Shown: piece after piece, positions 1 to 20,201 of the stretch
Layout: the number at the start of each line of letters is the position of its first letter
Numbering within the stretch: position 1 is the stretch's first letter
Source: Candidatus Poribacteria bacterium
GTDB lineage: Bacteria; Poribacteria; WGA-4E; UBA9662
Length of the DNA stretch: 64,000 bases
Direction: 5' to 3'
Assembly (NCBI GenBank): GCA_002709695.1
Contig: PAQF01000078.1
Coordinates: forward strand, 48,351-112,350
Translations under genes and position numbers: made by a program
Notes under the pieces: generated by a model
What the model saw: only the letters and a program-made list of their open reading frames with translations
Database searches by the model: none
Told to the model about the DNA's origin: nothing

Positions 1-2103
1 GCCGTCATCAAAAAGTTGTAATAATATATTGAAGACTTCAGCGTGTGCTTTTTCAATCTCGTCTAAAAGTACAACGGCATATGGTTTTCGTCGAATTGCT
101 TCGGTTAACTGTCCACCTTCGTCGTAACCTACGTATCCAGGTGGAGCTCCGATCAACTTTGAAACGGAGTGTTTCTCCATATATTCACTCATATCAATTC
201 TAATCATGGTGTTTTCATCATCAAACAAAAAAGTTGCTAAGGTTTTAGCAAGATGTGTTTTCCCAACACCAGTTGGTCCCATAAAAATGAGGGAACTGAT
301 TGGCCTGTTTTGATCCTGTAAACCAGCACGGGCTCTTCGTATGGCATTGGAGACGGTAGCTATTGCTTCGTTTTGACCAATGACATCTTCTTGGAGACGA
401 ATTTCCATCTGGATCAACTTTTGGATTTCTCCCTCTAACATTCTTGCAACAGGAATACCTGTCCATTTTGACACAACTTCAGCCACATCATTTTGATCAA
501 CTGTTTCCCTTAGGAGTTGACCTAACCCCTGTCTCTTTTCCAAACTTGACTTCGCATTTTCAAGTTGCAATTCCAAACTTGGCAACTCTCCATATAGTAT
601 TCGTGACGCCGAGGTCAGATCACCAGTACGTCTGGATTGCTCTTCTTGGATTTTCAGTGTTTCGATCTGCTCCATAATCTCACGTATACCTTGAAGTGTT
701 TCTTTCTCGTTATGCCACTTGGCTTTCAGTTGGTTGCGCTTTTCTTCGAGATCGGATTGTTCCGAAGTCAGTTGAATGAGTCTATTCTTTAAAGTTTCGT
801 CTTCTTCCTTATCAAGTGCTTGTCGCTCAATCTCAAGCTGAATGATTCTACGATCAACTTCATCAATTTCTTGTGGCACACTGTCAATCTCGATTCTTAA
901 ACGAGATGCTGCTTCATCGATTAGGTCTACTGCTTTATCTGGCAGGAAACGATCCGAGATGTAGCGGTTTGACAACGTAGCTGCTGAAACAACAGCGTTG
1001 TCCTGAATTTGAACACCGTGATGTGTCTCATAACGTTTCTTTAAACCGCGTAAGATCGTAATTGTCTCTTCAACGGACGGTTCGCTAACCATCACTGGCT
1101 GGAAACGTCTCTCCAGAGCTGCGTCTTTCTCCACGTGTTTGCGGTACTCATCAAGTGTGGAGGCACCGATACATCGTAGCTCACCTCTTGCGAGAGCAGG
1201 CTTAAGCATATTCGAGGCATCAATCGCTCCTTCTGCTGCTCCTGCTCCAACAATAGTGTGTAATTCATCAATGAATAGTATGACTCTGCCGTCAGCTTGC
1301 TCTATTTCTGTCAAGACCGCTTTTAACCGGTCTTCAAACTCACCACGATATTTTGCTCCCGCTAGCATTGCACCCAGATCAAGAGCAATTAGCTTCTTGT
1401 CTTTCAAGGTATCTGGAATGTCACCATTGACAATTCTCTGAGCTAGTCCTTCGACAATAGCTGTTTTACCAACGCCCGGTTTGCCGATTAACACCGGGTT
1501 GTTTTTACGTCGACGTGATAATACCTGTAAAATTCGGCGAACTTCATCATCACGGCCAATGATGGGATCAAGTTTTCCCGCTTGAGCAGTTAATGTTAAA
1601 TCTTGGCCAAAGCGTGTGAGGGCTTGATATTTCTCTTCGGCGTTTTGGTCAGTTACTTGTTGTCCTCCGCGGATACTAACAAGTGACTTAAGAATCTGAT
1701 CTTTGTTAACTCCATGGTCTCTAAGGATTTTGGAGGCTTGGCTTGTCTTTTCTTCTGCAATACCAATGAGAAGATGTTCGGTACTCAAGTATTCGTCTCT
1801 GAGGTAAGTTGCCTCTTTTAAGGCTAAGTCAAAAATGCGTTTTAGCGTTTTTGAAGCAACCTTGTCCTGGTTCGCACCCTGTACTTTTGGTGTATGCTCG
1901 AGTGCTTGAGTTAATTTTAGCCTTATTCTTTCGACATCGGCTCCAAGTTTCTGAAGAATTGGTTGGGTTACTCCGTCCTCTTGGGTTACTAATGATTCAA
2001 GTAGATGCTCTGGATTAATTTCTGGGCTTTGCATCTGGACAGCCAGGTCTTGTGCATTTTGTACGATTTTCTGTGCTTTTATTGTAAACTGATCGTATCT
2101 CAT
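1..2103 (-). CDS. clpB: ATP-dependent chaperone ClpB (AAA+ disaggregase); C-terminus runs off the window start
   Basis: Minus-strand translation starts [21 protein letters not shown]... (Clp N-domain). It contains two Walker A sites ([16 protein letters not shown]), a long coiled-coil middle domain and the D2 motif PEFLNR-like ...LLDEIEKAH.... An RBS-like GAAGGTGAAG lies upstream of the ATG at 2103. The +strand ORFs 1139..1441 and 1809..2018 are antisense artefacts inside it. Confidence 0.9.
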
Positions 2104-2454
2104 GATAGATACTTCACCTTCACTGTTATATTTTCAGTTTTGAAATAGCAAGTTCAATACCAATTTCTGAGAGCTGTTGATTTTAGCCAATTATAATCAG
2201 TTTAGGGAAACCCTAGTTTTACGCTAAGCCAATGGTTTGAATTCAGATATCTTGAAAAACGTTGATTTCATGACAAAAGTTATAGGTTTTTGTCAAATTG
2301 GCACGATTTAGGTGGAGATTGTGCTAATATTGACATTGAAGTAATTTGGTTTAATTTTAAGAGTGCGTTATCCCTATTGATTTTATCATCCTCTTGGTTT
2401 TCAGTTGAATGGTGTATATAATTGTGGTAGAATCCCCCGGATTTTGGGACTGGA

Positions 2455-3324
2455 TTGAACAGTATGGGCTTCATTAAGAGACTTTTTTATAAAACTGTTG
2501 AAACAGCAGCTTTAGAAAAAAAAGTGGATCAGAATGCGGATAAAGAATCAAATCCTTTCTTGGCAGATTTTCCTGAAGATACCAGTGAGAGGCAGAATGA
2601 ATCGGATTCTCTTCTGCAGGGTTCCACTGAAATTATACATGCCGATGAGCCAAATCCTGTTCTAGAAGAGTTCAGCGAAACAAGTCAAAGTTCCTCCTCT
2701 TTGGAAGGGGCAAATGAGCTTATTAGTGCAAACAATCTAAGTTTTGTTGACGGTATTGTTTCTGAGACATCTTTCGATCTTCCTATGGGTGAGTTTGATG
2801 ATGATGAAAATAGAATAGATATTGATAAAGTTTTGACAGCTGGTGGAATTGATCGTAATTGGCAGCTAGATAGTGGTGAGTACTCGGCTGAAAAAGTTAT
2901 GCAACTGATTGAAGAAGGTGTTCCGAAAGAAAGCCTCCCACCTGTTATCAAGGTTTCCGGAAAAAATGTTGAGGATATTGTTCAGGATGCTCTGCAAAAA
3001 CAGGGAATTTGTGAAGAGTTTGAAGAGAACTATAAGCAAGAACACCATATCCAACTTGAACAAACTGAAGCTGATATTGAACAGGTTGAGCTGGAAACCA
3101 ATCAAGAGATAGATCAGCTGAAGACAGAAATGGAAATGAGAGTTCAGGATCTTGAAGAAAATCGGCAGAATAGTTTAAATGAACTTTGTGCGAAGAAGCA
3201 GGCTTTAATTCATAAATTCAATCAAGATATCGTTGTTCTAGATAACTACGAGTCTAAGTGTGCAGAAGTGGTAGAATTTCTCAGGCACCCCGAAACGAAT
3301 GAATCAGAGCAATCGATTATTTAG
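2455..3324 (+). CDS. Hypothetical highly acidic coiled-coil protein. The N-terminus (MNSMGFIKRLF...) resembles the N-terminal amphipathic helix of the downstream PspA-like protein. The true start is possibly the ATG at 2464.
   Basis: 289-aa ORF, Asp/Glu-rich, with a predicted coiled coil in the C-terminal half (QLEQTEADIEQVELETNQEIDQLKTEMEMRVQDLEE). No recognisable enzymatic motif. Same strand as, and 33 nt upstream of, the PspA-like gene. Confidence 0.45.
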   Translation: MNSMGFIKRLFYKTVETAALEKKVDQNADKESNPFLADFPEDTSERQNESDSLLQGSTEIIHADEPNPVLEEFSETSQSSSSLEGANELISANNLSFVDGIVSETSFDLPMGEFDDDENRIDIDKVLTAGGIDRNWQLDSGEYSAEKVMQLIEEGVPKESLPPVIKVSGKNVEDIVQDALQKQGICEEFEENYKQEHHIQLEQTEADIEQVELETNQEIDQLKTEMEMRVQDLEENRQNSLNELCAKKQALIHKFNQDIVVLDNYESKCAEVVEFLRHPETNESEQSII

Positions 3325-3357
3325 CTTATTTCACAATATATCTGAGGAGGCAGGAAA

Positions 3358-4122
3358 ATGGGTTTTTTTTCATCAGTCCTTATTCGACTCAAGGGGTTTT
3401 TCCTTCAGGCAGGAGACGACATTGTTTCAGGAAGCACATCAAGTATTAAGGCTACTTATAGAACAATAGAAGAGCAAGAAATTAAACGTTATAATCAAAT
3501 GCTTGATGCTGTTTCTTCTCTTGCAAGACAAAGGTCACAAACAGAACAAGAAATCCAGAAAGATGAAGAGCAACTTAGCGAATTAGCACAGGAAATGGAA
3601 GGCGCGTTAGCTATTGCTGAGCGCGAACCTGAAAATCAGCAAGTACACGAGCAGGCCTACAACCGCGCTTTTACGAAAAAGGAAGAATTAGAAGCCCGTT
3701 TGGAACAACGCCGGAGTAAATTTGAGGAACTAGACCAAAAGGTTGAGAATTACAAAATCGAACTATCCAATTTTCAGGAACGAGTTCAGTCATTGAAACA
3801 AGAAGGTGATGAAGCTGTTGCTGATCTGATCAGTAGTGAGTCAATTGTTCGCATTGAACAAAGATTACAGGGGCTTTCAACAGAAGGTGCGGATCAGGCA
3901 TTAGACGCCGTTCGCCGTAAAGTCCAAGATACAAAGGCTAAAGCCCAAATCGCTTCTGAGATTGGGGGTACCGATGTTTCTCGCCAACGCGAACGCTATC
4001 GAACCGCAGCCAAGCAGAGTAGTGGAGCTAGTGAATTCTCAGAGAGATTGAAGCAAAGGCAGCAAGCAAAAACAGCGCAATCCCAAGCCGAAACAGCAGA
4101 GGAAAGAAAGTTAGGAGAATAG
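3358..4122 (+). CDS. PspA/IM30 (Vipp1)-like coiled-coil membrane-stress protein
   Basis: 254 aa with strong RBS GAGGAGG. The N-terminal amphipathic MGFFSSVLIRLKGFF is followed by a continuous Glu/Gln/Arg/Lys-rich coiled coil (LSELAQEMEGALAIAEREPENQQVHEQAYNRAFTKKEELEARLEQRR...). Length and layout match the PspA/ESCRT-III superfamily, but the family assignment rests on overall pattern, not an alignment. Confidence 0.5.
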   Translation: MGFFSSVLIRLKGFFLQAGDDIVSGSTSSIKATYRTIEEQEIKRYNQMLDAVSSLARQRSQTEQEIQKDEEQLSELAQEMEGALAIAEREPENQQVHEQAYNRAFTKKEELEARLEQRRSKFEELDQKVENYKIELSNFQERVQSLKQEGDEAVADLISSESIVRIEQRLQGLSTEGADQALDAVRRKVQDTKAKAQIASEIGGTDVSRQRERYRTAAKQSSGASEFSERLKQRQQAKTAQSQAETAEERKLGE

Positions 4123-4140
4123 GACAGGAGGAATACAGTA

Positions 4141-5703
4141 ATGGCAGAACAAAAATTGGCGCTTGGCCGAATCTTTATGGTGCTTGTTATTCTCATAGCT
4201 GTTATCGGTGGTCTTGCTTACAAATATGTGATTCCCGAACTTCAAGAGAACCAACAAGCGAAAAAATATGATCAAGCTAGTAGTGGTGGACGTTTTGAGA
4301 CAAATGTCACTGTTGCTGGTGATCCGTGGTCTGGTTATAGTCTTTTTCGTTCTGATCGATTCCGTACGGTTCTTTCCCAACTACAGATTGGTTATCGTTA
4401 TGATACTCAGGAAGATCTAGAGAAACGTTTTCAAGGGTTAGCAGATGGTAAATACGATTTTGTGGTTGCTACCATTGACGGTTATACGCTTAACGCCATC
4501 AATCTTAATTATCCAGGTGTTATTATCTTTTTAGTGGATGAATCCAATGGAGGAGATTCGATTGTTGCCAGTGCAAAAATACAAGCTCTCGATGATTTAG
4601 AAAATGCGAGGGTTTCCTACTCGGCTGGTTTTCCCAGTGAACATCTACTAGATGTTACGCTGACTCATTTTGATATTCTGGGTGTTAGACGTGAACCAGT
4701 GAATGAAGGACTTTCAGAGAAGTCGTATCAAATGTTACAACAGGGACGAGTAGAGGCCGCGGTTGTCTGGGAACCTGAAACATCGCGTGCTATTCAAGAT
4801 GGCTATACTCTACTGACTAGCACCAAGGACAGTGATGATATTATCATTGATGTTTGTATCGCTTCGCGCCAAATTGTCATGGAAAACCCTGAAGTGGTAC
4901 ACAAGGTAACTCGCGCCTATTTTAGGACACTTGATTATTACCAAAAACGAGAATCTGAGTTTGTCCAATATCTGGCTCGAGATGGAGGGGTTAACCAATC
5001 AGTAGCACAGAATATCATGAATGGTATAGACTTTGTCGATCTCAGAGAGAATCACCATCTCTGGTTTGGCATAGGTCAGAATGCCACTGACAAAATTGCA
5101 AAAGTTATTGAAGATACAATTAGTGTCCAACAATTTCATGATAAATTGATGACGGATCCATTTGCTAATAAGCCGGGAAGGGCATATTGGATAGTGAATA
5201 AGGATTTTCTCAGTCAATTGACACCAAATGCTGCTCCTCAAATAAAAGGTATGCCAGAAAAAAAGGTGGCTCCAACCCCAGTTGAGACTAAACGGAAATT
5301 TGCTAGGATGAAAGCCGAGGAGATTGAGAGTAAAACTCGGCGCATCGGTGAAATGAGAGTTGATCCTATCTACTTTGGTAGTGGGTCAGCGAAGTTAAGT
5401 CGTCAGTCGAGATTAGTTGTTGATAAGTTTGCCGAGACCCTTTTGCACTATCCAAATTACCGTTTGGTTTTGCATGGTTATTCATCTCCTACCGGTTCAT
5501 CTCAGATTAACATGGATCTGTCTAGAAAACGTGCTGGATCGATTGCTCGGTATTTGGTTCAAGAACATAGTGTTCAAGGTAGTCGGATTAATACTGTTGC
5601 TCATGGTGATAGGGAACCTCTTGAACGTAATCAAAATGAGACTTATGCTGATTGGTTGGAACGAAATCAACGGACTGAGTTTGTTTTGGTCAAAGATAGA
5701 TAG
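4141..5703 (+). CDS. Membrane-anchored periplasmic substrate-binding-like domain (NMT1/SsuA/TauA/PhnD-like) fused to a C-terminal OmpA/MotB-like peptidoglycan-binding domain
   Basis: N-terminal TM helix (IFMVLVILIAVIGGLAYKYV). The central region (DFVVATIDGYTLNAINLNYPGVIIFLVDESNGGDSIVAS...) resembles a periplasmic binding protein. The C-terminus RVDPIYFGSGSAKLS...YRLVLHGYSSPTGS...NMDLSRKRAGSIARYL...NRRTEFVLV is typical OmpA_C-like. RBS GGAGG. Confidence 0.6.
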   Translation: MAEQKLALGRIFMVLVILIAVIGGLAYKYVIPELQENQQAKKYDQASSGGRFETNVTVAGDPWSGYSLFRSDRFRTVLSQLQIGYRYDTQEDLEKRFQGLADGKYDFVVATIDGYTLNAINLNYPGVIIFLVDESNGGDSIVASAKIQALDDLENARVSYSAGFPSEHLLDVTLTHFDILGVRREPVNEGLSEKSYQMLQQGRVEAAVVWEPETSRAIQDGYTLLTSTKDSDDIIIDVCIASRQIVMENPEVVHKVTRAYFRTLDYYQKRESEFVQYLARDGGVNQSVAQNIMNGIDFVDLRENHHLWFGIGQNATDKIAKVIEDTISVQQFHDKLMTDPFANKPGRAYWIVNKDFLSQLTPNAAPQIKGMPEKKVAPTPVETKRKFARMKAEEIESKTRRIGEMRVDPIYFGSGSAKLSRQSRLVVDKFAETLLHYPNYRLVLHGYSSPTGSSQINMDLSRKRAGSIARYLVQEHSVQGSRINTVAHGDREPLERNQNETYADWLERNQRTEFVLVKDR

Positions 5704-5722
5704 AGTGTAAAGGAGGAAAAAA

Positions 5723-6715
5723 TTGAGACATAAATTACAAATGTATTTATCGTATCTTCTTGTTTACTGTTTCCTCGTGTTTGTTTGTAATCGAGTTATA
5801 TGCGCGGAGCCAGTTAAGGTTGGTGTTTCTATCTGGACAGGTTGGATGCCAATTTATTTAATGGAGGAGAAAGGATTCCTTAAAAAACGGTCGCAGGAAT
5901 ATGGGGTTGAGATTGAACTCAAGAAGTTTAAGGATTATCTTGCCTCTGTGCAGGCATTTACCGCTGGAGAATTGGATGCCTGCGCAATGACAATTATGGA
6001 TGCACTTCCACCCGCTGATGCAGGCATTGATGTTGCCGCTGTGCTTGTCAATGATTTCAGTAAAGGTGGAGATGGAATTCTAGTTCAATATGGTATTGAT
6101 GGTTCAAACTTTAAAGGGGTAGAGATACTACTTGAAGAATACTCAGTTTCACATTATTTACTTCTTCGTTATTTAGAGACAATTGGATTAACAGAAAAGG
6201 ATATCAAGGTGAAAAACACACCTGGTGATGATGCAGGTCGTGCTTTTCTATCAGGAAATGCTGAAGCGGTTGCTACGTGGAACCCACATCTTTTTTTGGC
6301 TGAGGATGCAGGACGTGGCTATGTTTTGTTCAATAGCAAGAAAATCCCCGGTGAAATCATCGACTTGGTAGTATTTAACAACAAACGTTTAAAGCAAAAC
6401 CCCAAAGCTGCTCAAGCTTTTGTCTCCGCTTGGTATGATGCCATGGACATGATTAAGGATTCTGAGACACGACAGGAAGCCATCAGTATTATGTCGGAGC
6501 TGGCTGGGACGAAACCTGCAGAATTCAGCAAAATGCTTGAAGGGACAGATTTGTTTTTTGATCCCCAACGTGCCGCCGCTTTCCTAAACAGTGAAGAAAT
6601 TCGAAAAACAGAGAAAAAAGTGGTCAAATTCGCGCAAAACCATGGACTTATCAACGATGAGGTTAAGCTCAGGTACGATGCAACGGTTATTCGAACTGTT
6701 CGTCTGGCCAAATGA
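5723..6715 (+). CDS. ABC transporter substrate-binding protein, NitT/TauT (nitrate/sulfonate/bicarbonate) family
   Basis: Probable TTG start 6 nt after AGGAGG (an alternative ATG is at 5741). Signal peptide/TM (LSYLLVYCFLVFVCNRVICA), followed by a binding-protein-like fold and SsuA/TauA-like length. It immediately precedes a cognate permease and ATPase. Confidence 0.65.
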   Translation: MRHKLQMYLSYLLVYCFLVFVCNRVICAEPVKVGVSIWTGWMPIYLMEEKGFLKKRSQEYGVEIELKKFKDYLASVQAFTAGELDACAMTIMDALPPADAGIDVAAVLVNDFSKGGDGILVQYGIDGSNFKGVEILLEEYSVSHYLLLRYLETIGLTEKDIKVKNTPGDDAGRAFLSGNAEAVATWNPHLFLAEDAGRGYVLFNSKKIPGEIIDLVVFNNKRLKQNPKAAQAFVSAWYDAMDMIKDSETRQEAISIMSELAGTKPAEFSKMLEGTDLFFDPQRAAAFLNSEEIRKTEKKVVKFAQNHGLINDEVKLRYDATVIRTVRLAK

Positions 6716-7533
6716 GCACTCGAAAATTATACCAGGTTGGCGCAGAAATTGATTCACGATTGTCATCAATTTTAGTGCTTTTGCCTATTGTTTTTGTTAT
6801 ATCGTTGTATTTCTATGGATCACATAAGCGGCATCAGGAAAACCCAAAAGATCGGATGATGCCGAATTTGGAGCAGATTCAATCGGGAATTGTCAAAACA
6901 GTTGAAGTTAACCGGAGGACCGGAGATCGGTGGCTCTGGAAGGATCTCAAATATAGTCTTCGGTTGATGGTTGTAAGTGTAACGATTACTGTTGGGTCTG
7001 CTGTGCTCGTTGGGTTGCATATGGCCTGTTTCTCAGCTATTGAAGCGTTGCATATGAAGTTTGTGCGCTTTGTCAGTTTCATCCCACCTCTAGCTCTGTT
7101 GCCCTTGATATTTATTTTTGTTGGCACCGACACACCAGCAAAAGTATTGCTCATCTTTTTAGGGACATATTTTATATTAGTAATGGATGTTTTTCTCGCT
7201 TGCAGGGATGTTCCGAAGAAGCTAATACAGAAAGCTTACACCATGGGGGCATCAACTGTAGAGGTTGTCTTCAAAGTCGTGTTAATGTACGCTTGGCCTA
7301 GAATCCTGAATAGTATTCGTTTTACACTTCGGCAGGCTTGGATATTTTTAATTGCTGCTGAGATGATTGCTTCTGAAGCTGGGTTAGGTTATCGTATTAT
7401 ATTGGTTCAGAGGCAGATCGGTGTCAATATCATTTTATGGTACATTTTTATTATTGGCACTATTGGTTTCATCTGTGATTTTATACTATTACAGGTTATT
7501 CAGAGGTATTATGCTTGGAGTTTGGAGAGATAG
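6712..7533 (+). CDS. ABC transporter permease, NitT/TauT family (SsuC/TauC-like)
   Basis: Multi-TM protein carrying an EAA-loop-like motif (ASEAGLGYRIILVQRQ). Overlaps the upstream SBP gene by 4 nt (ATGA). Confidence 0.8.
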   Translation: MSTRKLYQVGAEIDSRLSSILVLLPIVFVISLYFYGSHKRHQENPKDRMMPNLEQIQSGIVKTVEVNRRTGDRWLWKDLKYSLRLMVVSVTITVGSAVLVGLHMACFSAIEALHMKFVRFVSFIPPLALLPLIFIFVGTDTPAKVLLIFLGTYFILVMDVFLACRDVPKKLIQKAYTMGASTVEVVFKVVLMYAWPRILNSIRFTLRQAWIFLIAAEMIASEAGLGYRIILVQRQIGVNIILWYIFIIGTIGFICDFILLQVIQRYYAWSLER

Positions 7534-7537
7534 CATT

Positions 7538-8422
7538 ATGTCTGAATCCTTGTTGGCATTAGAGATCAAAGATCTGACACTTGTTTTTAAGGATCGGAAA
7601 GCGACAAAGGTTGTTCTGAGTGATGTTAATTTACAGGTCAAGCAAGGCGAATTTGTTGCTATTGTGGGGCCTAGCGGTTGTGGCAAATCGTCTTTATTGA
7701 ACTTGATTGCAGGATTCATTCAACCTACTTCAGGCCAAATTTTGGTCGATGGGGAGCCCATTGAGGGGCCTAATCGGAATATAGGAGTTGTGTTTCAGGA
7801 TTATACACTTTTTCCTTGGTTGACAGTTGTTGACAATGTAGCGTACGGTATGGAATTAGCAGAAATCGATTTTCTTATGAAATGGATTCGTCCCTTTCGT
7901 TTTCGGCAGTTGCACCGTGCTTTCAGAGAAAAAGCAGGCTTTTATCTTGAAGAGATGGGTTTGAAGGAAGCCCAACATAAGAAGCCCTACCAATTGTCAG
8001 GTGGAATGAAGCAAAGAGTAGCCATCGCCCAGGAGGTTATTCGAAAACCGTCGATTTTGCTTATGGATGAACCCTTTGGCGCCCTCGACCCACAGACACG
8101 AGAGGTTCTTCAGGTATTAATCCTAAAAATTCATGAACAGGAACGGAATACCATCTTTTTCGTAACGCACGATTTGGAAGAAGCCGTTTACGTTGCTGAA
8201 CGCGTTATTGTTCTCTCACAATATAAGCCAAATGGTAACAGTGAGGGTGCCACAATTGTCAAAGATGTCTGCGCCCCAGTATTTAAATCTACCGAGGTAA
8301 AACGAACAGATGACTTTGGGGGGCTAATCCAAGATATTCGAAGGTCAGGATTTGCACCGGATCAGAGGGATATTGTAAAAGCATTTGATCAGAGCTATCA
8401 AGACAAAGCAGATAGTCGGTAG
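7538..8422 (+). CDS. ABC transporter ATP-binding protein (SsuB/TauB-like)
   Basis: Walker A GPSGCGKSS, Q-loop, signature LSGGMKQRVAIAQ, Walker B LLMDEPFGALD. The listed ORF start at 7421 overlaps the permease. The ATG at 7538 (MSESLL...), 4 nt after the permease stop, is the likely start. Confidence 0.85.
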   Translation: MSESLLALEIKDLTLVFKDRKATKVVLSDVNLQVKQGEFVAIVGPSGCGKSSLLNLIAGFIQPTSGQILVDGEPIEGPNRNIGVVFQDYTLFPWLTVVDNVAYGMELAEIDFLMKWIRPFRFRQLHRAFREKAGFYLEEMGLKEAQHKKPYQLSGGMKQRVAIAQEVIRKPSILLMDEPFGALDPQTREVLQVLILKIHEQERNTIFFVTHDLEEAVYVAERVIVLSQYKPNGNSEGATIVKDVCAPVFKSTEVKRTDDFGGLIQDIRRSGFAPDQRDIVKAFDQSYQDKADSR

Positions 8423-8561
8423 ATTGTAACTGTTTTTACCTCTGATATTTCCCCAAATCCTATCTGAAACTCGAATTTGTAAGATACTCCGACGTCTTTC
8501 GCAATTTTATGCTGGTGGGATACTGTTTCAAGATCGGTGAGTTATAATTTAGATAACGACA

Positions 8562-9398
8562 ATGACCATGCAACAAGAGAATGATCTTTCGTACCAGAAA
8601 TTAACTTGGAATTTATTTAAAGAGTGCCTTTTTCAGCCTCTATTCTATGGTCCGTTGGCAACTGGGATTTTTTTAGCATTTATTGATAAGCCTGTTCTTT
8701 CACTAGGAGCATTTGTAGCTAGTGCTATATCGTTCTCGTACTATTTTCTTCTGGGCAAGGCACCGCGTAGGCGTATCCAACAGCAAATTGAGGAGCAGAT
8801 TCAACATAACAATGAGGAGAAAATTCGCTTAGATCAGGAGAGCCGATCGGAACTTCATCAGGAACTTGATGAGCGTGGTAGATCCCATTTCGAAAATTTG
8901 ATCAAATTGGAACAAATGCTTGATGAAAAACTAATGAATTTAGGCAATCAGTTAGTGGTCAGTCAGTTGGTAAAGATGTCTAAAGAGGTTACTTTGGAAT
9001 CCATCAAATCTTTGAGAAACCGGGTGATTTACACATCATTGTTAGAACAGTTCGATGTCCAAAAATTGCAGCGGGATCTGAGTGAGACAAAAAAAAAGTA
9101 TGAGGGTGAACGTGATGTCAACCTCAAGAGAGAATTTCGTGAAACAATACAGGCACTAACTAATGAGCTTAACCAACTTAAGAAGTTAGAGACTACGGTT
9201 GAGCAACTAGAACAGGACATCATTACTGCGCAATCTTCGCTTCGAGGTTCCATTCTTCTCGTATCGCAACCAAAGTCAGCTGACCATACATCACGTTTAG
9301 AGCAACAAGTTGCCAAACTACGAGACGAAGTCGAAGTGGCTAGAAAGGTTAATCAAGAATTGGCGCGTTTTGGTATTGATCCTTCGATGAAGGCTTAG
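8562..9398 (+). CDS. Hypothetical membrane protein: two N-terminal TM helices followed by a long coiled coil
   Basis: 278 aa. Hydrophobic segments PLATGIFLAFIDKPVLSLGAFVASAISFSYYFLLG, then heptad-like charged repeats to the C-terminus. No catalytic motif. Confidence 0.5.
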   Translation: MTMQQENDLSYQKLTWNLFKECLFQPLFYGPLATGIFLAFIDKPVLSLGAFVASAISFSYYFLLGKAPRRRIQQQIEEQIQHNNEEKIRLDQESRSELHQELDERGRSHFENLIKLEQMLDEKLMNLGNQLVVSQLVKMSKEVTLESIKSLRNRVIYTSLLEQFDVQKLQRDLSETKKKYEGERDVNLKREFRETIQALTNELNQLKKLETTVEQLEQDIITAQSSLRGSILLVSQPKSADHTSRLEQQVAKLRDEVEVARKVNQELARFGIDPSMKA

Positions 9399-9613
9399 TG
9401 GGATATAGAGTTTTTTTATTTAACGAATCGTTTCAATTTATTAACTTAAGCATTTTTCAGTCCACCTCAGTTAGGACCTTTTGACTTAAAAGCTCTGTCT
9501 AACCCCTTGTAGGCTAAGTAATTGCATAATCTTCGTACAGATGCCATAATATATAATTCTCTCTTTGGAAGGTTAACTTTCTTTAATTTTCAGGACAGAG
9601 CAGGCTGAAAAAA

Positions 9614-11332
9614 ATGAATTGGAAATCAGCACCGCAATTTCTCCAGACGATTATCCAGAAGTTCAATTCTGGGCAGAGCAATCAATTCATATTATACGGG
9701 AACGTGCGTGATTTGTATTCGTTAGGGAAAGACCAGTTCTATTTTTTGACTGACTGTCTAAAACGGTTAATGGACCCTCCTGAAGGTGATCAAAGGCGTG
9801 TCATTGTCTATTATGATTTAATCAGTGGGGTCCAGTTCCGGAATCAAGATGACTTGGTTCTTGTTGAGTCTATTTTGGGACAATCTGAACTTCAGAAGTA
9901 TATGCAGGATAGTGTCCAAAATCCACTGCAAGCATTGGTTTTCCTTCAGGAACTGAGCAAAATCAGTCTTCATGCCATCGACTCCGGAAAGCAAGGATGG
10001 GGTTTCATAATCAACCATGTTGAATCGTTGATTCACCGTCAAGAAGGTAATCATCTGAACGAAGTTGAGCAACGGAAAGCAATGATTTTCCATCAGTGGT
10101 TTACGGATCCGACTTTTGTTCGTGGACACCATTTAGCTATTCTGATTACACAAACGCTCGCAGAGCTAAATGAAATGGTGATTGAACTCCCTTTTGTCAC
10201 TGCCATCCAAGTGCCTCGACCAAATGATATACAGCGACAAAGATATCTTCGGTTTCTCAAAAAGCAACATCATGTTAGTTTGGGGTTGAGGGAAAAAGAT
10301 GCCGTTTTCTATACGGGCGGCTTGACCCTACAAGATTTGCAGAAGATGTTTATGCAAGCGAATCATACTGGTACGAAGCTAACTGCTGAAATGATATTTC
10401 AGCTTACGCAAGAAGTAATTGAAAAAGAACTTAGTGGGAATATTGAATTCCCAATTATTGATCATGATTTTTCCGATGTAATTGGGTCTAAAAAATTATT
10501 AGTAAAATTGGAGGAAATGAAGTCTTTCATTCTGAGTGGTAACTCTGACTTGATGCCAACCGGCATTCTCGTACCTGGCCCGAATGGTGTGGGTAAAACC
10601 TATATTTTCAAGGCGTTTGCTAAAGAATGTGGTTACTTGCCGGTAATCATTAAGAATGTCCGTGGTCAGTATGTTGGACAGACGGAAATGACATGGGAGA
10701 AAATTCGGTCAATTCTTGAAGTCATGGGAAATGTAATGGTGATTTATGACGAAGCCGACACAGAACTTGGAGGTCGGGGTGCTGGTACACATGATGTCGA
10801 TAAGCGGCTCTTTGGGGCAGTTTTGAGGATGATGAGTGACCTGAATAATCGTGGGAAAATCATCTGGATAATTATTACTGCTAGGCCTGATAAACTAGAA
10901 CCGGATATCAAACGAACCGGACGTGCAGGTGAGCACTTGTCTGTCTTTGACCCGGAAGGACAAGAACGTGAAGAATTTATCGATTTTGTCATGTCGAAAA
11001 TTGGATTATCATTCAATGATTTTCTTGAAGATCAAAAACAGCGGTTTTTGGATCATACTGCCAGTTATTCTCCAGCTGATTTTATTCAACTTTTAACCAA
11101 TTTGGAACGCAAAAAACATCTTATCTCTAGGAATCTAACAGCAGATGAAATTTTAGAAACTGGGTATGACTTTATTCCTGCGGATATTAGCTTGCAACGG
11201 CAACTACAGGAATTATTGGCATTTGTTGAATGTTCGTATCAAAGCCTAATTCCGGAAAAATATGCCCAGACAACTAAGCAAAAAGCTTACGCTCAGATTG
11301 GCGAGTTGAAAATTTTATTGGGTGAAAATTAG
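9614..11332 (+). CDS. AAA+ ATPase with a classical AAA C-terminal module and an N-terminal degenerate AAA-like domain
   Basis: C-terminal module: Walker A GPNGVGKT, Walker B VIYDEAD, sensor-1 IIITAR and Arg-finger region PDIKRTGRAGEH (FtsH/CDC48-clade-like). The N-terminal ~300 aa contain QFILYGNVRDLY, which resembles a Walker-A-less AAA core. Confidence 0.75.
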   Translation: MNWKSAPQFLQTIIQKFNSGQSNQFILYGNVRDLYSLGKDQFYFLTDCLKRLMDPPEGDQRRVIVYYDLISGVQFRNQDDLVLVESILGQSELQKYMQDSVQNPLQALVFLQELSKISLHAIDSGKQGWGFIINHVESLIHRQEGNHLNEVEQRKAMIFHQWFTDPTFVRGHHLAILITQTLAELNEMVIELPFVTAIQVPRPNDIQRQRYLRFLKKQHHVSLGLREKDAVFYTGGLTLQDLQKMFMQANHTGTKLTAEMIFQLTQEVIEKELSGNIEFPIIDHDFSDVIGSKKLLVKLEEMKSFILSGNSDLMPTGILVPGPNGVGKTYIFKAFAKECGYLPVIIKNVRGQYVGQTEMTWEKIRSILEVMGNVMVIYDEADTELGGRGAGTHDVDKRLFGAVLRMMSDLNNRGKIIWIIITARPDKLEPDIKRTGRAGEHLSVFDPEGQEREEFIDFVMSKIGLSFNDFLEDQKQRFLDHTASYSPADFIQLLTNLERKKHLISRNLTADEILETGYDFIPADISLQRQLQELLAFVECSYQSLIPEKYAQTTKQKAYAQIGELKILLGEN

Positions 11333-11654
11333 GCTTTGATTTTCCTTGATAATCTTGGGACTGGAGTCGACATTTTTTAAATTGATGATGAACTGGCCTA
11401 AAATTAAGAGGTGATGAATCTCATTAAAGAAGACAATACAGAGTATTGTACCCGTAGTATTTCCGCATGTATTGAGTTTTTCTTATTTTAGATTATAGGG
11501 ACGTTTTATTACTAAAGCAGACTCGAAAGTATCTATGATATCTGATCCATCCGAAAAAATTTAAATGGTTAAATCTAATGGCCTTGGTATATAAGGCCTT
11601 AAGTCAACATAACAATGTAGCCTTGATTTTGAGGGGAGATTTCAGGGATTTCTA

Positions 11655-13967: not shown

Positions 13968-14042
13968 AGTGCTTTTCAAAACTGGCATTTCGGTGGCCAG
14001 ATGCTTGTAAAACAAAATTTTTAAAATTGATGGAGTATAAGT

Positions 14043-14840
14043 ATGATAAAAGTCATTGTTGATGGTGCTTGTGGTCGAATGGGTAAAATGTTAACTTCCC
14101 TAGTCACTAGACAACCAGATATGGAGCTTGTTGGGGCAACAGAGTATCCTTCACATCCGAAAATAGGTGTAGATGTTGGTGAGGTTGCTGGTATCGGTTC
14201 AATTGGAATCAAAATTGTGGAAGATCTAACAGCTGTTATTAATTATGGAGATGTCGTCATCGAGTTCACATCTCCTGAAGCTACGATCTCTAATTTCAAA
14301 AAAGTCGTTGATGCAGGAAAGTCTATGGTCATTGGCACAACTGGTTGTACAATTGACCAATTGACGGAAATCCGATTGTTAGCAGAACATGTTCCGTGTC
14401 TTATGTCGCCGAATATGAGTGTTGGGGTTAACGTTATGTTGAAAGCAATCGAGCTTGTGGCCAAAGCACTTGGTGATGAATATGATGTCGAAGTTATTGA
14501 AGCTCACCATAATCAGAAAGCAGACTCACCTAGTGGTACTGCTGTCCGTATCGCCGATGTGTTAGCAACGGCATTAGACCGAGACATTAATCAAGTTGGT
14601 GTTTACGGTCGTGAAGGGATAGTTGGAGCACGTCCCGAGAAAGAGATTGGTATTCATGCCATTCGTGGAGGTGACATTATTGGTGATCATACTGTTCTTT
14701 TCGCTGGAATTGGTGAAAGGGTAGAGGTTTCCCATAGGGCACAGAGCCGCGAGTCTTTTGCTAGTGGGGCAGTCCGAGCTGCACGGTGGATTATTAATGC
14801 ACCTAAAGGACTTCATGATATTAGTGAAGTTCTCTTCTAA
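14043..14840 (+). CDS. dapB: 4-hydroxy-tetrahydrodipicolinate reductase
   Basis: N-terminal Rossmann motif VDGACGRMG. Conserved HHNQKADSPSGTA substrate-binding motif. 265 aa. Confidence 0.85.
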   Translation: MIKVIVDGACGRMGKMLTSLVTRQPDMELVGATEYPSHPKIGVDVGEVAGIGSIGIKIVEDLTAVINYGDVVIEFTSPEATISNFKKVVDAGKSMVIGTTGCTIDQLTEIRLLAEHVPCLMSPNMSVGVNVMLKAIELVAKALGDEYDVEVIEAHHNQKADSPSGTAVRIADVLATALDRDINQVGVYGREGIVGARPEKEIGIHAIRGGDIIGDHTVLFAGIGERVEVSHRAQSRESFASGAVRAARWIINAPKGLHDISEVLF

Positions 14841-14879
14841 CACTTACAGGATTTTGTCAGCCTATAAGGGGGATATCTT

Positions 14880-15455
14880 GTGGATTTGCAAAAGAAAATT
14901 GACGGCTGGTTTGTGCCACTTTCTTGTAGCGAGAAGACTTTGAGTTCAGCTTATCAGGAACTTCAGAAGTTTGGTTTGAAACAAGAAGAAATTCCTTACA
15001 TTATACAGATTGTGGAAAACCCCAAATTCGATTTGCCAGGCGGTGATATTTTTCATGGGAAGACAGATATAGAAACACACGATTACCTTCACATTATTTT
15101 GGGTAGAGGAGTCCTTGCAAAAGATGAGGCTTTTGTTATTGGCTTTACTATGGGAAGCTCCAACCGTGTTACTTCGACTGAGGAAAGCCTCTATAGTTTT
15201 TTTGCTAAGTATTTATACCCCAAAGCATACCGTTTTACGGATGACGACCTACACGTTTTCAAAGATGCGGTGAAGCTTGGTTTTATTTCCGATTGTCAAT
15301 CTTTGGCCGAGGTGGACTACTCTTGTTATCTTCAGTATCCGTTGCAGGAGATACGAGAGGACTTGGGTATAGAAACCAACCTGTTACAAGCTTATTACGC
15401 TATTGAGAAACGACGATATCCGGATTCAGTAGAGAGCCAAAGGTTGCTCAGTTAG
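14880..15455 (+). CDS. Hypothetical protein (GTG start)
   Basis: 191-aa ORF with no overlap and no recognisable motif (contains HDYLHIILGRG). Same strand, 40 nt after dapB. Confidence 0.45.
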   Translation: MDLQKKIDGWFVPLSCSEKTLSSAYQELQKFGLKQEEIPYIIQIVENPKFDLPGGDIFHGKTDIETHDYLHIILGRGVLAKDEAFVIGFTMGSSNRVTSTEESLYSFFAKYLYPKAYRFTDDDLHVFKDAVKLGFISDCQSLAEVDYSCYLQYPLQEIREDLGIETNLLQAYYAIEKRRYPDSVESQRLLS

Positions 15456-15518
15456 GAATCATAGTACAGATATTCTTTCAGTTGACGGTTAAGTAATTCG
15501 ATCCAATCATTCCATTTC

Positions 15519-17396
15519 TTGTGCCATTTTGAATTTAAGGAGACCATTATGCCTTTAAAAAGGTTAATTATCGTTATTTTGCTGAGTGTGATGTGTTTTG
15601 TTTCGACTACCAATGCGCAACAGAATTTTTCAGATGAAATAGGGCCTACCCGGGTTAGAGTTGTTCAATCCCAAGATCCATTGTTAATTCCTTATATTAC
15701 TTGGGGGGGGGAATCGGCGTTATTTTATGCTAATGGAGGTTTATCGACTCAACCTAATTCAATCATGGCTAGTTTGGGATTAAATTTAAAGCTGGTTCCG
15801 GGTGATGACTTTATGCAGCAAGTCAGGGATTACTTAGCTGGTAGATCCCCAGTTCTACGCGGTACGTTTAGAATGATTGCTCAAGCTAGCGAAGTAATTG
15901 GACGCGATCCTAGGACACAGGGTGTTGTTTTTGGTCAGTTAACTTGGTCTGCTGGTGATCATTTTGTTGGCAGATCTAACATTAGAAAAATCTCTGACTT
16001 AAAGGGTAAAAAGATCGCTGTCCAAAAAGGGGGACCTCATGTTGGGATGTTGTATGATATGTTGTTGACGGCTAGACTTCCAAAGTCTGACCTGCAGATC
16101 ATATGGATGGATGAATTAACGGGAAAAAACAGCCCAGCGGAAAAGTTTAGGATAGACCCAACAGTCTCCGGTTGTTTTGTCATTACACCGGATATGCTTA
16201 GTTTGGTTGGTGATTATCACGCAATTGGTGATGGGACAGGAGGTACGGTTAAAAGCGCACGATTGGTGGTTAGTACAGCAACATTATCCCGTTCGATTGC
16301 AGATGTTTATGTATGCCGAAAAGATTATATTGATAAAAATAGTGTCGTCGTTGAAAAGTTTTTTGCTGGGTATTTAAAAGGTGCAGAAGAAGTTATTCGT
16401 CTGAAAAAAGATTATGAAGCCGGTGGTTCAAAAAAGTATATGGCTCTACTTCAAATGATGCAGGATATTTATGGGAAGTCAGTGTTACCAACGCTTGATG
16501 AAGATGCTCATGGGCTTATCGCTGATTGTGCGTTTGTTGGGCAACCTGGCAATATGGCGTTTTTTAATGATTCGACAAATGTTGTAACAGGATTTGAAGG
16601 GGTTAATAAAAATGGGCTGGATATGGCTATCAACTGGGGATTTGCTAGAAAGAGACACAACTTGATCAGTTCTAGCTTGGATTTCAAATCGCCAACTTTT
16701 ACAAACCTACTAACAACAACTGTTATGACTCCGATTCAAAGAAAGCGTTTCAAAGAAGAATCAGTTAGAGCTGAAATTGAAACATTTAGTGAAGAAGATA
16801 TTCTAGACGATAATACACTAATATCATTTACAATTCAGTTTGAAGCTAACCAGGACACGTTCAGTGAAACTCAGTATCGTGAAGAATTCGATCGCGTTAT
16901 TGAACTTACTTCTCGGTTTGGTAACGCGGCGGTAGCGATTAAAGGACATACTGATCCCTCAAAAGTTCTGTTTTCTTTGGTAAAAACTGGAATTAAAAGA
17001 GGAATTCTAAAGCGGACAGGAACAAGAGGAAGTTATGAGTATTTTATGAACGGTAGGTCCTTTAGTTTGGAAGACACATCCGAATTGATTCGGCTGATTC
17101 AACAAAAGAAATTTGATGACGGGAGTGATTTTGATGGACCATACCAAATAATGAGAGCTGGTCTGAAGTTGTCTGAGCAGAGGGGGGAGGCTGTCAAGAA
17201 AGCGATTCTTGCCTATGCGAGCAGAAAAAACGTAAGGATTGAAGCTGAACAGATTATTCCAGTAGGAGTTGGTATCAAAGAGCCTGTGATTGCTAAGCCA
17301 ACGAACTCGGTGGAAGCGGCAAAAAACCGGCGTGTGGAGTTTGCTTTAATTAAGATTTCTTCTGAGTCTGTTGCTGAGGCTGATTTTGATTTCTAA
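15519..17396 (+). CDS. Secreted substrate-binding-like domain fused to a C-terminal OmpA-like domain that carries a large insertion; paralogous in architecture to 4141..5703
   Basis: Signal peptide IVILLSVMCFVSTTNA. Binding-protein-like region (KKIAVQKGGPHVGMLYDMLL). C-terminus AVAIKGHTDPSKV...[~60 aa insert]...LSEQRGEAVKKAI...NRRVEFALI matches an OmpA_C-like motif. Contains a 9-G run at 15703..15711. Confidence 0.6.
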   Translation: MCHFEFKETIMPLKRLIIVILLSVMCFVSTTNAQQNFSDEIGPTRVRVVQSQDPLLIPYITWGGESALFYANGGLSTQPNSIMASLGLNLKLVPGDDFMQQVRDYLAGRSPVLRGTFRMIAQASEVIGRDPRTQGVVFGQLTWSAGDHFVGRSNIRKISDLKGKKIAVQKGGPHVGMLYDMLLTARLPKSDLQIIWMDELTGKNSPAEKFRIDPTVSGCFVITPDMLSLVGDYHAIGDGTGGTVKSARLVVSTATLSRSIADVYVCRKDYIDKNSVVVEKFFAGYLKGAEEVIRLKKDYEAGGSKKYMALLQMMQDIYGKSVLPTLDEDAHGLIADCAFVGQPGNMAFFNDSTNVVTGFEGVNKNGLDMAINWGFARKRHNLISSSLDFKSPTFTNLLTTTVMTPIQRKRFKEESVRAEIETFSEEDILDDNTLISFTIQFEANQDTFSETQYREEFDRVIELTSRFGNAAVAIKGHTDPSKVLFSLVKTGIKRGILKRTGTRGSYEYFMNGRSFSLEDTSELIRLIQQKKFDDGSDFDGPYQIMRAGLKLSEQRGEAVKKAILAYASRKNVRIEAEQIIPVGVGIKEPVIAKPTNSVEAAKNRRVEFALIKISSESVAEADFDF

Positions 17397-17438
17397 TAGG
17401 GCTTTAATTCCCATGTTTTTTTAAATAGGAACTGGGTT

Positions 17439-18392
17439 ATGCAGAACAAAAGCTTAAAAGCGTTTCTATTTGCTATCTTTGTTTTTCTTGTGCCTTTATC
17501 TGTGACTTTTTTATCTGCTGAGAATATACATACAGATAATATTGTTGTTGTTTTGGATGCATCGGGATCGATGCAAGAGGAATTCAGTAGCGATCCAACA
17601 CAAATAAGGATGGATGCAGCTAAAACAGCATTACAAGCAGTTTTAACAATGATTCACGACGGCACGAATGTTGGACTCCTCGTTTTTAGTGGTTCCAATG
17701 TGAATAAACATTGGGTTTATCCTCTTGGACCAAAGAACAATGAGGTTTTGGCTAAAGCTATTAATTTACCCCTTCCTGGGGGTAAAACGCCTCTGGGGGA
17801 ATACCTCAAAATTGGTGCTGATCGACTTCTTGAGCAACGGGAAAAACAGTATAATTATGGAAGTTATCGTCTATTAGTTGTGACAGATGGCGACGCAAGT
17901 GACCGTGATAAGGTTCAGTTGTATACACCAGAGATAATGCGTAGGCAAATTCGAATTGATGTGATCGGCGTAGACATGGAAAAAAATCATATGTTAGCTA
18001 CCGTTGTTGATAGTTATCGTCGAGCTGACAATCCGAAGCAATTAATAAAAGCAGTATCCGATGTTCTCGCTGAGGTTCCCAGTACTGGGATAGATACTGA
18101 AGGGGAGAATATGTTTGAACTAATATCACCGCTTACCGATGAAGTAGTTTTGTCTCTGATTAGTGAAATAACAAAAGTTCCAGGAAATCAACCCATTGGC
18201 ACCCAGTTGGTAACACCTGCACAGGCAACAGAGATGAGTGCGCCAACTCTAACAGTTAATACTGGTACTAGTCAGCCAAGTAGTAATCAAAAGTCCAACA
18301 TAGGATTTTTGATTATCATTATCGGTTTATTAGTAATAACATGGCTAATTTTTAAAAAAATCAAGCCAATGATAAGGCCTAGCATCAAATAG
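17439..18392 (+). CDS. von Willebrand factor type A (VWA) domain protein with signal peptide and C-terminal TM anchor
   Basis: MIDAS-like IVVVLDASGSM, later LVVTDGDASD. Ser/Thr-rich linker, then a hydrophobic C-terminal helix FLIIIIGLLVITWLIF. Confidence 0.7.
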   Translation: MQNKSLKAFLFAIFVFLVPLSVTFLSAENIHTDNIVVVLDASGSMQEEFSSDPTQIRMDAAKTALQAVLTMIHDGTNVGLLVFSGSNVNKHWVYPLGPKNNEVLAKAINLPLPGGKTPLGEYLKIGADRLLEQREKQYNYGSYRLLVVTDGDASDRDKVQLYTPEIMRRQIRIDVIGVDMEKNHMLATVVDSYRRADNPKQLIKAVSDVLAEVPSTGIDTEGENMFELISPLTDEVVLSLISEITKVPGNQPIGTQLVTPAQATEMSAPTLTVNTGTSQPSSNQKSNIGFLIIIIGLLVITWLIFKKIKPMIRPSIK

Positions 18393-18394
18393 AT

Positions 18395-19636: not shown

Positions 19637-20201
19637 TCAGCTTGAGGAAATAGTGATGCACCTTCTGGTTTTTTATCCAAGCTTAAATAAGTTGTTATTA
19701 TAGAACTAAAGAGTAATTTAAAATCGATGCTGATTGCCCGTTGTTCATTTGTGTTGATATTACCAACTAGGTTTCTTCCGTAAAAACACGTCTATAGGCT
19801 TTTCTGTCAAAAAAGTTAAGCTGTCAGTCGATTTTTGTAACGATTCTCAAATGTTAAGATAGATGGTAGCTCAGATGATTTTGTGGTAGCATTTCTGTGT
19901 GTTAAACATTCAAGCGATTGTGATTCCATGCTGTTATCCTTTCTTTTCTTTCGTTTTAGATAATTTATATATGTAGGGAAAACTTTGTTTGGGTTTAGGG
20001 CTTAGTAGTGGCTAGCCGAAATTGATGGAAGGAAGTTACCTGCGCTAATCAGGGTGGCTCTTTGTCAATTTGTGGTAATTTGCTAGACTACTGTGGATAT
20101 GTAATTAGGGCAATTATGCTTGTCATGCGCAGCATAGTTTTCGCAACGAACAATCAAGTTCCTATGGGAATGATTTAACAAAACTATAGAAACAATCAGT
20201 A

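Follow-up and report, generated by a model that had tools for sequence, protein, structure and literature searches.

The window examined here, a stretch of 64,000 nucleotides (nt) from a Candidatus Poribacteria bacterium (GenBank assembly GCA_002709695.1, contig PAQF01000078.1, positions 48,351 to 112,350 of the forward strand), carries a same-strand gene cluster in which a divergent relative of the membrane-remodelling proteins PspA and Vipp1 is encoded next to an acidic partner that we call P1. Downstream of this pair lie genes for a solute-binding protein (SBP) fused to an OmpA domain, SBP-OmpA, the three components of an ABC importer, a protein with two transmembrane (TM) segments and a coiled coil, TMcc, and a two-domain AAA ATPase. 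A second solute-binding/OmpA protein, SBPOmpA2, and a vWA protein are encoded further on. The features, in window coordinates and with lengths in amino acids (aa), are as follows.

2405..2433, + strand: promoter-like site, TTGAAT-17-TAGAAT with an extended-10 TG, found by consensus scan about 30 nt 5' of gene 1
2464..3324, + strand: P1, 286-aa acidic PspA partner; no known family matched
3358..4122, + strand: putative divergent PspA/Vipp1 protein, 254 aa (PF04012, 21.4 bits; profile and fold searches)
4141..5703, + strand: SBP-OmpA, TM anchor with NMT1/SsuA-like and OmpA domains (Pfam/NCBIfam, TM prediction)
5723..6715, + strand: secreted free SBP, NMT1_2 (78.9 bits), TIGR03427-like
6712..7533, + strand: ABC importer permease, TauC/SsuC-like (BPD_transp_1, 52.2 bits; 5 hydrophobic segments)
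7538..8422, + strand: ABC ATPase, NitT/TauT-type (ABC_tran, 132 bits)
8562..9398, + strand: TMcc, 278 aa, hydrophobic hairpin and long helical part (neighbourhood conservation)
9614..11332, + strand: two-domain classical AAA ATPase, 572 aa (PF00004, PDB matches, hhalign)
15519..17396, + strand: SBPOmpA2, secreted NMT1-like and OmpA-like protein, 625 aa (NMT1, 25.6 bits; weak OmpA match)
17439..18392, + strand: periplasmic vWA protein, 317 aa (VWA, 48 bits)

The first six genes follow one another closely, with 33 nt between P1 and PspA, 18 between PspA and SBP-OmpA, 19 between SBP-OmpA and the free SBP, an overlap of 4 nt (-4) between SBP and permease, and 4 nt between permease and ATPase. The open reading frames (ORFs), the recomputed spacing and the Pfam and NCBIfam searches all confirm the initial annotation on the gene number, strand, spacing and domain content of this stretch. 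It had also taken the six genes to be the whole unit, which did not hold, as the TMcc and AAA genes continue the cluster and are conserved with PspA. Judged jointly with the envelope-module reading and the mechanism set out below, the six genes are probably the front of an eight-gene same-strand cluster (2464-11332), with two further components at 15519-18392. These last two, SBPOmpA2 and vWA, are displaced about 4 kb downstream and are separated from the AAA gene by a WD40/FGE-sulfatase gene, dapB and a 191-aa ORF. The most likely start of gene 1 is the ATG at 2464 (MGFIKRLF...) rather than the TTG at 2455, and the ABC ATPase starts at the ATG at 7538 where the ORF list gave an upstream GTG at 7421. 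The promoter-like site counts as weak evidence only, since sites of this sort are no more and no less numerous in the region than shuffled sequence leads one to expect. No riboswitch or other RNA element was found in positions 1-20000 of the window (one chance-level Histone3 match) or in 8 related loci.

That the product of gene 2 is PspA-like, as first proposed, is borne out by both profile and fold searches. The single sequence matches PspA_IM30 (PF04012) at 21.4 bits (E 2.2e-4), below the gathering score of 33.9, over model positions 40-218 of 220. Its close homologues number only 12 among 5.8 billion clusters, and 8 of the 12 bear a precomputed PF04012 match. When a profile of the family (11 members) is searched against the PDB the top 8 matches are all Vipp1/PspA (best E 1.7e-4, residues 21-215 against 16-200), and Vipp1 also ranks first in a search with the single sequence. 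The AlphaFold2 (AF2) model, with a mean predicted local distance difference test score (pLDDT) of 63.6, has helices at residues 3-12, 27-89, 91-157, 160-172 and 178-202; block-mean pLDDT is 74-95 in the hairpin formed by 27-89 and 91-157 and low in the remainder. The top 10 Foldseek matches of this model in the PDB are again all Vipp1/PspA (probability 0.75-1.0, E 3.5e-3 to 0.1), and the N-terminus (MGFFSSVLIRLKGFFL) is amphipathic and alpha0-like. With Vipp1 and PspA first throughout, the protein is not placed outside the PspA/ESCRT-III superfamily, and on these profile matches and this predicted fold it is accepted here as a putative divergent member of the PspA/Vipp1 family.

How divergent it is can be seen from comparison loci (numbered with the prefix L) in which the equivalent place is taken by a canonical PspA. 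The PspAs of L027 and L028 score 62-63 bits; BLAST finds no similarity between them and the window PspA, and hhalign gives 3% probability over the N-terminal 74 columns only. To judge by sequence, the window protein and these PspAs are divergent subfamilies. The most distant homologue of the window subfamily, at 44% identity, is found in Candidatus Coatesbacteria (L001, 7464-8793), where the gene overlaps the end of a PAP2 phosphatase gene by 8 nt and P1, SBP-OmpA and ABC genes are absent nearby. The C-terminal end of the family is strongly conserved (E248, R250, L252 and G253, in ..ERRKLGE) in a part of the model that is disordered; by analogy with the MIM motif, this E.R.LG peptide could be a docking peptide.

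The partner P1 is strongly acidic, with a pI of 4.2 and 66 D+E residues against 24 K+R. It has no match in Pfam, NCBIfam or the PDB, and its profile likewise finds nothing meaningful in the PDB. Building the family nevertheless defines an N-terminal amphipathic helix with the pattern M-x-F-[IFL]-K-x-[LF]-[FL]-Y (MGFIKRLFY in the window), a variable acidic linker and a conserved C-terminal domain of about 160 residues with invariant Cys, His and Tyr positions. Homologues of P1 lie immediately 5' of a PspA-like gene in L008, L010, L019-L022, L025 and, as a short form, L004. P1 and PspA are thus a conserved dyad, and P1 is a lineage-conserved PspA partner in Poribacteria-type relatives. The suggestion that the two proteins are paralogous or co-assemble survives in its second half: homology of P1 to PspA is not detectable (hhalign probability 1.9%), and co-assembly is plausible given the conserved dyad and an N-terminal motif that the two proteins share elsewhere. 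In L080 and L110 the upstream partner starts ..WKKVKGLFWQ.GD and PspA starts ..FWNFVKGLFWQGQ, a near-identical motif (WKKVKGLFWQ against FWNFVKGLFWQ) which supports a shared membrane- or partner-targeting N-terminus of P1 and PspA. In these partner proteins (L080, 522-1998; L110, 7539-8988) an acidic low-complexity linker follows the motif. A protein with a similar start (MSSIFKKIKSAF) and an acidic linker is encoded at L109 (7196-7882), 5' of a distant SBP-OmpA/ABC operon lacking PspA. At L007 (5328-6626), about 4 kb from a P1-PspA pair, there are genes for a DUF2089 zinc-ribbon protein and a 293-aa SHOCT-like/Sigma54_activat AAA protein; the latter could be a PspF-like regulator of the dyad.

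SBP-OmpA is the hub gene of the cluster. Its product has a single N-terminal TM segment (residues 6-24), an OmpA domain (62.7 bits) and a solute-binding domain that scores 19.6 bits with NMT1, just under the cutoff of 20.5, and E 1.3e-11 with SsuA_fam; the motif LS..R is invariant in 18 homologues. SBPOmpA2 scores 220 bits against a hidden Markov model (HMM) built from the L027 and L028 proteins, and in 25 of the 27 loci with full coverage its gene is found directly 5' of vWA and SBP-OmpA. The vWA protein has a signal peptide, the metal-ion-dependent adhesion site (MIDAS) motif DASGS and a C-terminal TM anchor, with TM-like segments at residues 8-26 and 287-305. By predicted topology, the free SBP, SBP-OmpA, SBPOmpA2 and vWA are periplasmic, and PspA, P1, the AAA ATPase and the helical part of TMcc are cytoplasmic.

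The importer belongs to the NitT/TauT class, as its NMT1-type SBP, BPD_transp_1 permease and ABC_tran ATPase score 78.9, 52.2 and 132 bits, all above the cutoffs; the NCBIfam models nearest to the ATPase are SaoA, TauB and NtrCD. It has the same three components as importers of the TIGR03427 type (putative urea ABC transporter SBP, NitT/TauT). However, its SBP, which is 56% identical to those of L027 and L028, reaches 276.2 bits with TIGR03427, short of the equivalog cutoff of 333.9, whereas the SBPs of three loci of the TelA type described below (L039, L062 and L100) pass it at 486-495 bits. No urea or guanidine carboxylase gene or riboswitch was found near the window cluster.

TMcc has a hydrophobic hairpin at about residues 25-65 followed by a long helical or coiled-coil part that is predicted to be cytoplasmic. 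It is placed after the ABC genes or SBP-OmpA in L019, L021, L023, L027 and L028 and in 50 of 80 metagenomic loci. The family is rare: an exhaustive HMMER search of 1.84 billion proteins yielded 10 representatives at E<=1e-3, too few for a deeper alignment to be built. A TM protein in this position has been assigned to the Snf7 family in a related operon (see below). Here, PF03357 (Snf7) had no match at E<=1 in 11 family members, hhalign of the TMcc and PspA profiles gave 0.1% probability, the TMcc profile found no ESCRT-III protein in the PDB, and none was among the top 50 fold matches of its low-confidence AF2 model (pLDDT 60.7).

The AAA protein is matched by PF00004 at residues 318-442 only (66 bits). 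Its best PDB matches are VAT/p97, and its closest structural relatives are VAT, p97 and AFG2. Residues 1-290 alone match no Pfam or PDB family, yet hhalign aligns the N half with the C half at 79% probability (E 1.5e-5, 153 columns), and the Walker A position in the N-terminal AAA-like domain reads GNVRD (FILYGNVRD). Because the N-terminal half aligns to the C-terminal AAA domain with its Walker A replaced, the protein is predicted to combine an inactive AAA domain with an active, CDC48/VAT-like one at the C-terminus. Orthologues accompany PspA in L027, L074, L080 and L110; the iterated HMM drifted to Clp-type and other AAA proteins, and the count of the cluster AAA was restricted to high-scoring orthologues. 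A distinct classical AAA of about 500-540 aa (C-terminal PF00004, 100-114 bits) recurs beside TelA-type clusters, usually in divergent orientation (L039, 5867-7393, - strand; L088, 5170-6738, - strand; L104, 2520-4133, + strand; also L061, L091 and L094).

The arrangement is not a product of chance, as it is kept in Poribacteria relatives and has variants in other lineages. In three Poribacteria loci with a PspA about 90% identical to that of the window the order from P1 through AAA is fully kept. Outside Poribacteria, variants were found in one Riflebacteria metagenome-assembled genome (MAG) and in metagenomic contigs. The Riflebacteria locus, L027, reads AAA-PspA-SBPOmpA2-VWA-SBPOmpA-SBP-permease-ATPase-TMcc, and L028 and L036 have this layout minus the AAA gene. 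In L074 the order is SBP-permease-ATPase-PspA-AAA-SBPOmpA2-VWA-SBPOmpA-2TM, in L080 and L110 it is partner-PspA-SBPOmpA-2TM-AAA without ABC genes, and in L038 it is VWA-SBPOmpA-TMcc-PspA. Two loci with a PspA 60-64% identical to that of the window, L025 and L010, have P1-PspA-SBPOmpA followed by Uma2, ABC genes being absent. This gene-neighbourhood comparison shows the association of PspA with an OmpA-tethered binding protein, which the initial annotation had noticed in the window, to be conserved in at least five gene orders from several lineages. Since L080 and L110 lack ABC genes, the ABC importer is an optional partner of PspA and the least constant one, and PspA keeps company more constantly with SBP-OmpA, the 2-TM protein and the AAA ATPase. 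Near the PspA-like gene, some relatives carry Cas12f1/TnpB-like genes (L004, 8954-10483; L014, 1394-2095, with Cas6 as well), consistent with shuffling of the P1-PspA dyad by mobile elements.

A wider census placed these loci in a larger family. An alignment of 18 SBP-OmpA sequences led to 239 metagenomic relatives, of which the best 80 loci were retrieved and their ORFs annotated with purpose-built HMMs. The dominant layout is SBPOmpA2 > vWA > SBPOmpA > TMcc > TelA > SBP > permease > ATPase, in which a protein of about 400 aa is TelA (PF05816, toxic anion resistance; 235-245 bits). The counts are as follows.

All 80 loci: TelA 37, PspA 12, both 0, neither 31, vWA 63, SBPOmpA2 52, TMcc 50
The 27 loci with enough flank: TelA 16, PspA 4, both 0, neither 7, vWA 25, SBPOmpA2 25, TMcc 20

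The cytoplasmic-face component is either TelA, as in most loci, or a PspA-family protein, as in the window, and never both among the 80 loci; PspA versions commonly add the CDC48-like ATPase. In L038 PspA stands in the TelA slot. Relaxing the PspA HMMs to E<=1 across the census loci added no match, and Pfam revealed no recurrent family among 72 unlabelled neighbouring ORFs. The TelA-type loci are L039, L040, L042-L044, L049, L051-L054, L060-L064, L068-L070, L072, L073, L075, L078, L083, L088, L089, L091, L093-L096, L098, L100, L103-L105, L107 and L108. The window does not hold a TelA-type cluster, and a TelA HMM found no match in the six-frame translation of all its 64 kb. Nevertheless, its SBP-OmpA, SBPOmpA2, vWA, TMcc and ABC genes are homologous to those that flank TelA in the 37 of 80 loci, with PspA, P1 and AAA in the place of TelA. 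Homology of TelA itself to PspA or TMcc was considered and rejected, as hhalign probabilities were at most 2.2% (0.5-2% for TelA against PspA); no solved TelA structure was found for comparison.

An operon with matching gene order has been published. Ravi et al. 2024 (mSystems 9:e00847-23, PMC11237479) list in their Table S3, for OGG56892.1 of Candidatus Handelsmanbacteria, the order X-PspA-PBPB+OmpA-TM(s)-ABC ATPase-TM+Snf7-inactiveAAA+AAA, and propose ATP-dependent membrane remodelling tied to solute transport, with OmpA binding peptidoglycan. The window is thus a Poribacteria member of a known computational operon type, and the view that PspA does not occur with solute importers, on which the initial annotation had relied, is out of date. 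The two share content and order (P1 at X, PspA, SBP-OmpA, permease, ATPase, TMcc and AAA), the fusion of a solute-binding and an OmpA domain with a TM segment, and an AAA protein with an inactive N-terminal and an active C-terminal domain. They differ in that the window adds a free SBP gene and a Poribacteria host, its PspA is of a divergent subfamily under the Pfam cutoff, and its P1 now makes 'X' definable as a conserved acidic partner. TMcc corresponds by position to the 'SIG+TM+Snf7' gene in Ravi et al., although the Snf7 assignment is not reproduced for it. In the present census, moreover, TelA and vWA are the commoner context of the same SBP-OmpA/TM/ABC core, and neither is mentioned by Ravi et al. 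(PMC11237479). No description of a TelA-vWA-OmpA-ABC cluster was found in the searchable literature; the 2012 paper on Ter systems (Anantharaman, Iyer and Aravind) lay outside the search and may hold one.

What might such a cluster do? We think it likely that the cluster and its two downstream components are the PspA version of a widespread envelope module that works along the following lines. SBP-OmpA, together with vWA and SBPOmpA2 where these are present, would tether the inner membrane to the cell wall. The tethered periplasmic assembly would serve to bind or sense a small solute for import by the ABC system. TMcc, with its two TM segments, would relay across the membrane and recruit a cytoplasmic scaffold, a role that may be played by TelA in most lineages and by PspA and P1 in the window. 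PspA, aided by the acidic P1 with its similar amphipathic N-terminal helix, would polymerise on the membrane to stabilise or remodel it, and the AAA ATPase would remodel or disassemble the PspA polymer as Vps4 does for ESCRT-III. The original interpretation, a PspA module wired to an importer, is retained here as to the identity of PspA and its linkage to SBP-OmpA, and is abandoned as to the size of the unit, the novelty of the importer association and the paralogy of the first two proteins.

Several observations weigh against this proposal. In the CAZOAL01 MAG, whose PspA is 72% identical to that of the window, P1-PspA lies on contig 23 (L022) among unrelated neighbours and the block SBPOmpA-SBP-permease-ATPase-TMcc-AAA on contig 75 (L023); with the two parts unlinked, the fusion into a single operon would be lineage-specific. 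P1-PspA stands alone in L008 and L004, and a PspA-like gene stands alone, without P1, in L013, so that the fusion in the window could be a recent one. Gaps of 139 nt and 215 nt lie 5' of the TMcc and AAA genes, respectively, so that each may be transcribed from a promoter of its own. Classical AAA genes also occur at some TelA-type loci, and the ATPase therefore need not act specifically on PspA. The Snf7 nature of TMcc was not reproduced by Pfam, hhalign, PDB profile or fold search. The census draws on the best 80 of 239 matches and on HMMs built for this analysis, and we infer the mechanism from domain content and gene neighbourhood.

The most serious rival, which we hold to be unlikely, makes of the same genes two independent adjacent modules, a P1-PspA stress dyad and an uptake operon for nitrogen or sulfur compounds, with no mechanistic coupling. 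The split in CAZOAL01, the P1-PspA pairs beside unrelated genes in L004, L008 and L022 and the L013 gene without P1 all fit this view, as do the TnpB/Cas12f-like genes nearby in relatives, which suggest shuffling, and the free SBP, which is near TIGR03427, whose family name comes from a metabolic setting, that of urea carboxylase. However, PspA genes of divergent subfamilies adjoin SBP-OmpA in at least five gene orders, and L025, L010, L080 and L110 link PspA to SBP-OmpA without ABC genes. The mutual exclusion of PspA and TelA (both in 0 of 80 loci), with the possibility that they occupy the same slot (L038), also speaks for coupling.

We consider it very unlikely that the genes form a defence island against phage or toxic compounds, of the Ter/TelA or Zorya kind, in which a MotB-like peptidoglycan-anchored sensor triggers a PspA or TelA effector and the AAA protein. 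TelA and vWA (TerY-like) domains are classic parts of tellurite- and phage-resistance loci, PspA was originally defined through its induction by phage infection, and PADLOC gives weak matches of the OmpA part to ZorB (E 2e-5) and of AAA to IetA (4e-7) and TRIP13 (4e-6). These PADLOC matches, however, are generic domain-level ones (MotB, AAA), and P1, PspA, TMcc, vWA, SBPOmpA2 and TelA have none. A nuclease, toxin or other typical defence effector is absent, the neighbours Clp, DapB, IlvD and TsaD are housekeeping proteins, and a dedicated importer with a highly conserved SBP suits physiology better. Scarcely tenable, finally, is the idea that gene 2 encodes only a generic coiled coil that resembles PspA through composition bias, leaving the cluster without an ESCRT-III component: the sub-threshold Pfam score of the single sequence, additional weak matches to SMC/Rad50 coiled coils, a best Foldseek E of about 3e-3 at low overall pLDDT and the hhalign result with the two canonical cluster PspAs would allow it, but the match is colinear with PF04012 for nearly its full length and with residues 21-215 of solved Vipp1, both the first 8 sequence matches and the first 10 fold matches in the PDB are Vipp1/PspA without exception, relatives bear precomputed PF04012 matches, the amphipathic alpha0 N-terminus and a hairpin as long as expected are present in the family, and a bona fide PspA holds the equivalent place in L027 and L028.

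Set beside the classical Psp and Lia systems (pspF-pspABCDE of Escherichia coli, liaIH of Bacillus subtilis), the envelope module proposed for the window has in common with them a PspA effector with a predicted amphipathic N-terminal helix and membrane-protein partners and, with the E. coli system, an AAA+ protein. PspB, PspC, LiaI, LiaF, Toastrack and a PspF-type sigma54 activator had no match among the nine genes scanned (2455-13967). The window AAA differs in that it is no enhancer-binding protein but a predicted classical AAA of the CDC48-like kind whose first domain is dead, and PspA is partnered by an importer and by periplasmic binding proteins tethered to the cell wall. The ESCRT-III systems of archaea and eukaryotes with their ATPases Vps4 and CdvC likewise place an ESCRT-III superfamily gene beside a classical-clade AAA gene. 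The window AAA nevertheless reaches only 25.9 bits against a CdvC model cutoff of 650, and its architecture is dead AAA plus AAA, not MIT plus AAA: no MIT domain was detected in the protein, its N-terminal region being a degenerate AAA domain. A 2025 review (PMC7619361) holds that a Vps4-like regulator appears absent in bacteria, which makes the PspA-AAA pairing in the window a candidate Vps4 analogue.

The cluster bears on how bacterial ESCRT-III-like polymers such as PspA and Vipp1 are recruited and disassembled. By combining PspA with a membrane adaptor, a periplasmic protein tethered to the cell wall and an ATPase of the classical AAA kind, it would be a compact candidate system for ATP-driven PspA dynamics, and it lets one ask how membrane repair is linked with solute uptake and with the cell wall. 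The arrangement itself is already published; the window adds a Poribacteria example and a definable P1 family, and the present comparison goes beyond Ravi et al. 2024 in the dominant TelA layout, the exclusion between TelA and PspA and the importer as the least constant PspA partner. The alternation is a new lead and a testable hypothesis on TelA function. Could the PspA family and TelA be interchangeable cytoplasmic effectors of one widespread and apparently undescribed envelope machine? We regard this as a tentative and still rather doubtful possibility. Besides an ABC importer, the machine would comprise two peptidoglycan-tethered proteins with solute-binding folds, a vWA protein in the periplasm and a coiled-coil adaptor with two TM segments. 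If it is real, TelA, which has lacked a clear function for decades, would do for the membrane what PspA does and act as a stabilising scaffold; the dead-AAA+AAA ATPase that accompanies PspA would be the Vps4 equivalent long sought in bacteria, acting on the PspA polymer; and P1, with its alpha0-like helix, would be a co-polymerising or capping subunit.

The genes around the cluster are of other kinds. Divergent from gene 1 is a partial gene for a Clp-type AAA+ chaperone (window 1-2133, - strand), which is about 860 aa long in relatives, with Clp_N in L017, and keeps its position beside gene 1 in close Poribacteria relatives. Directly 3' of the AAA gene, and syntenic in close relatives, lies the WD40/FGE-sulfatase gene (11655-13967, + strand), which encodes a secreted protein of 770 aa with a WD40 beta-propeller, an Ig-like He_PIG region and a C-terminal FGE-sulfatase (formylglycine-generating-enzyme-like) domain. 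Downstream of the vWA gene, a gene for a 413-aa GNAT acetyltransferase (18395-19636, + strand; Acetyltransf_9, 79.5 bits) starts 3 nt past the vWA stop and may be co-transcribed with SBPOmpA2-vWA.

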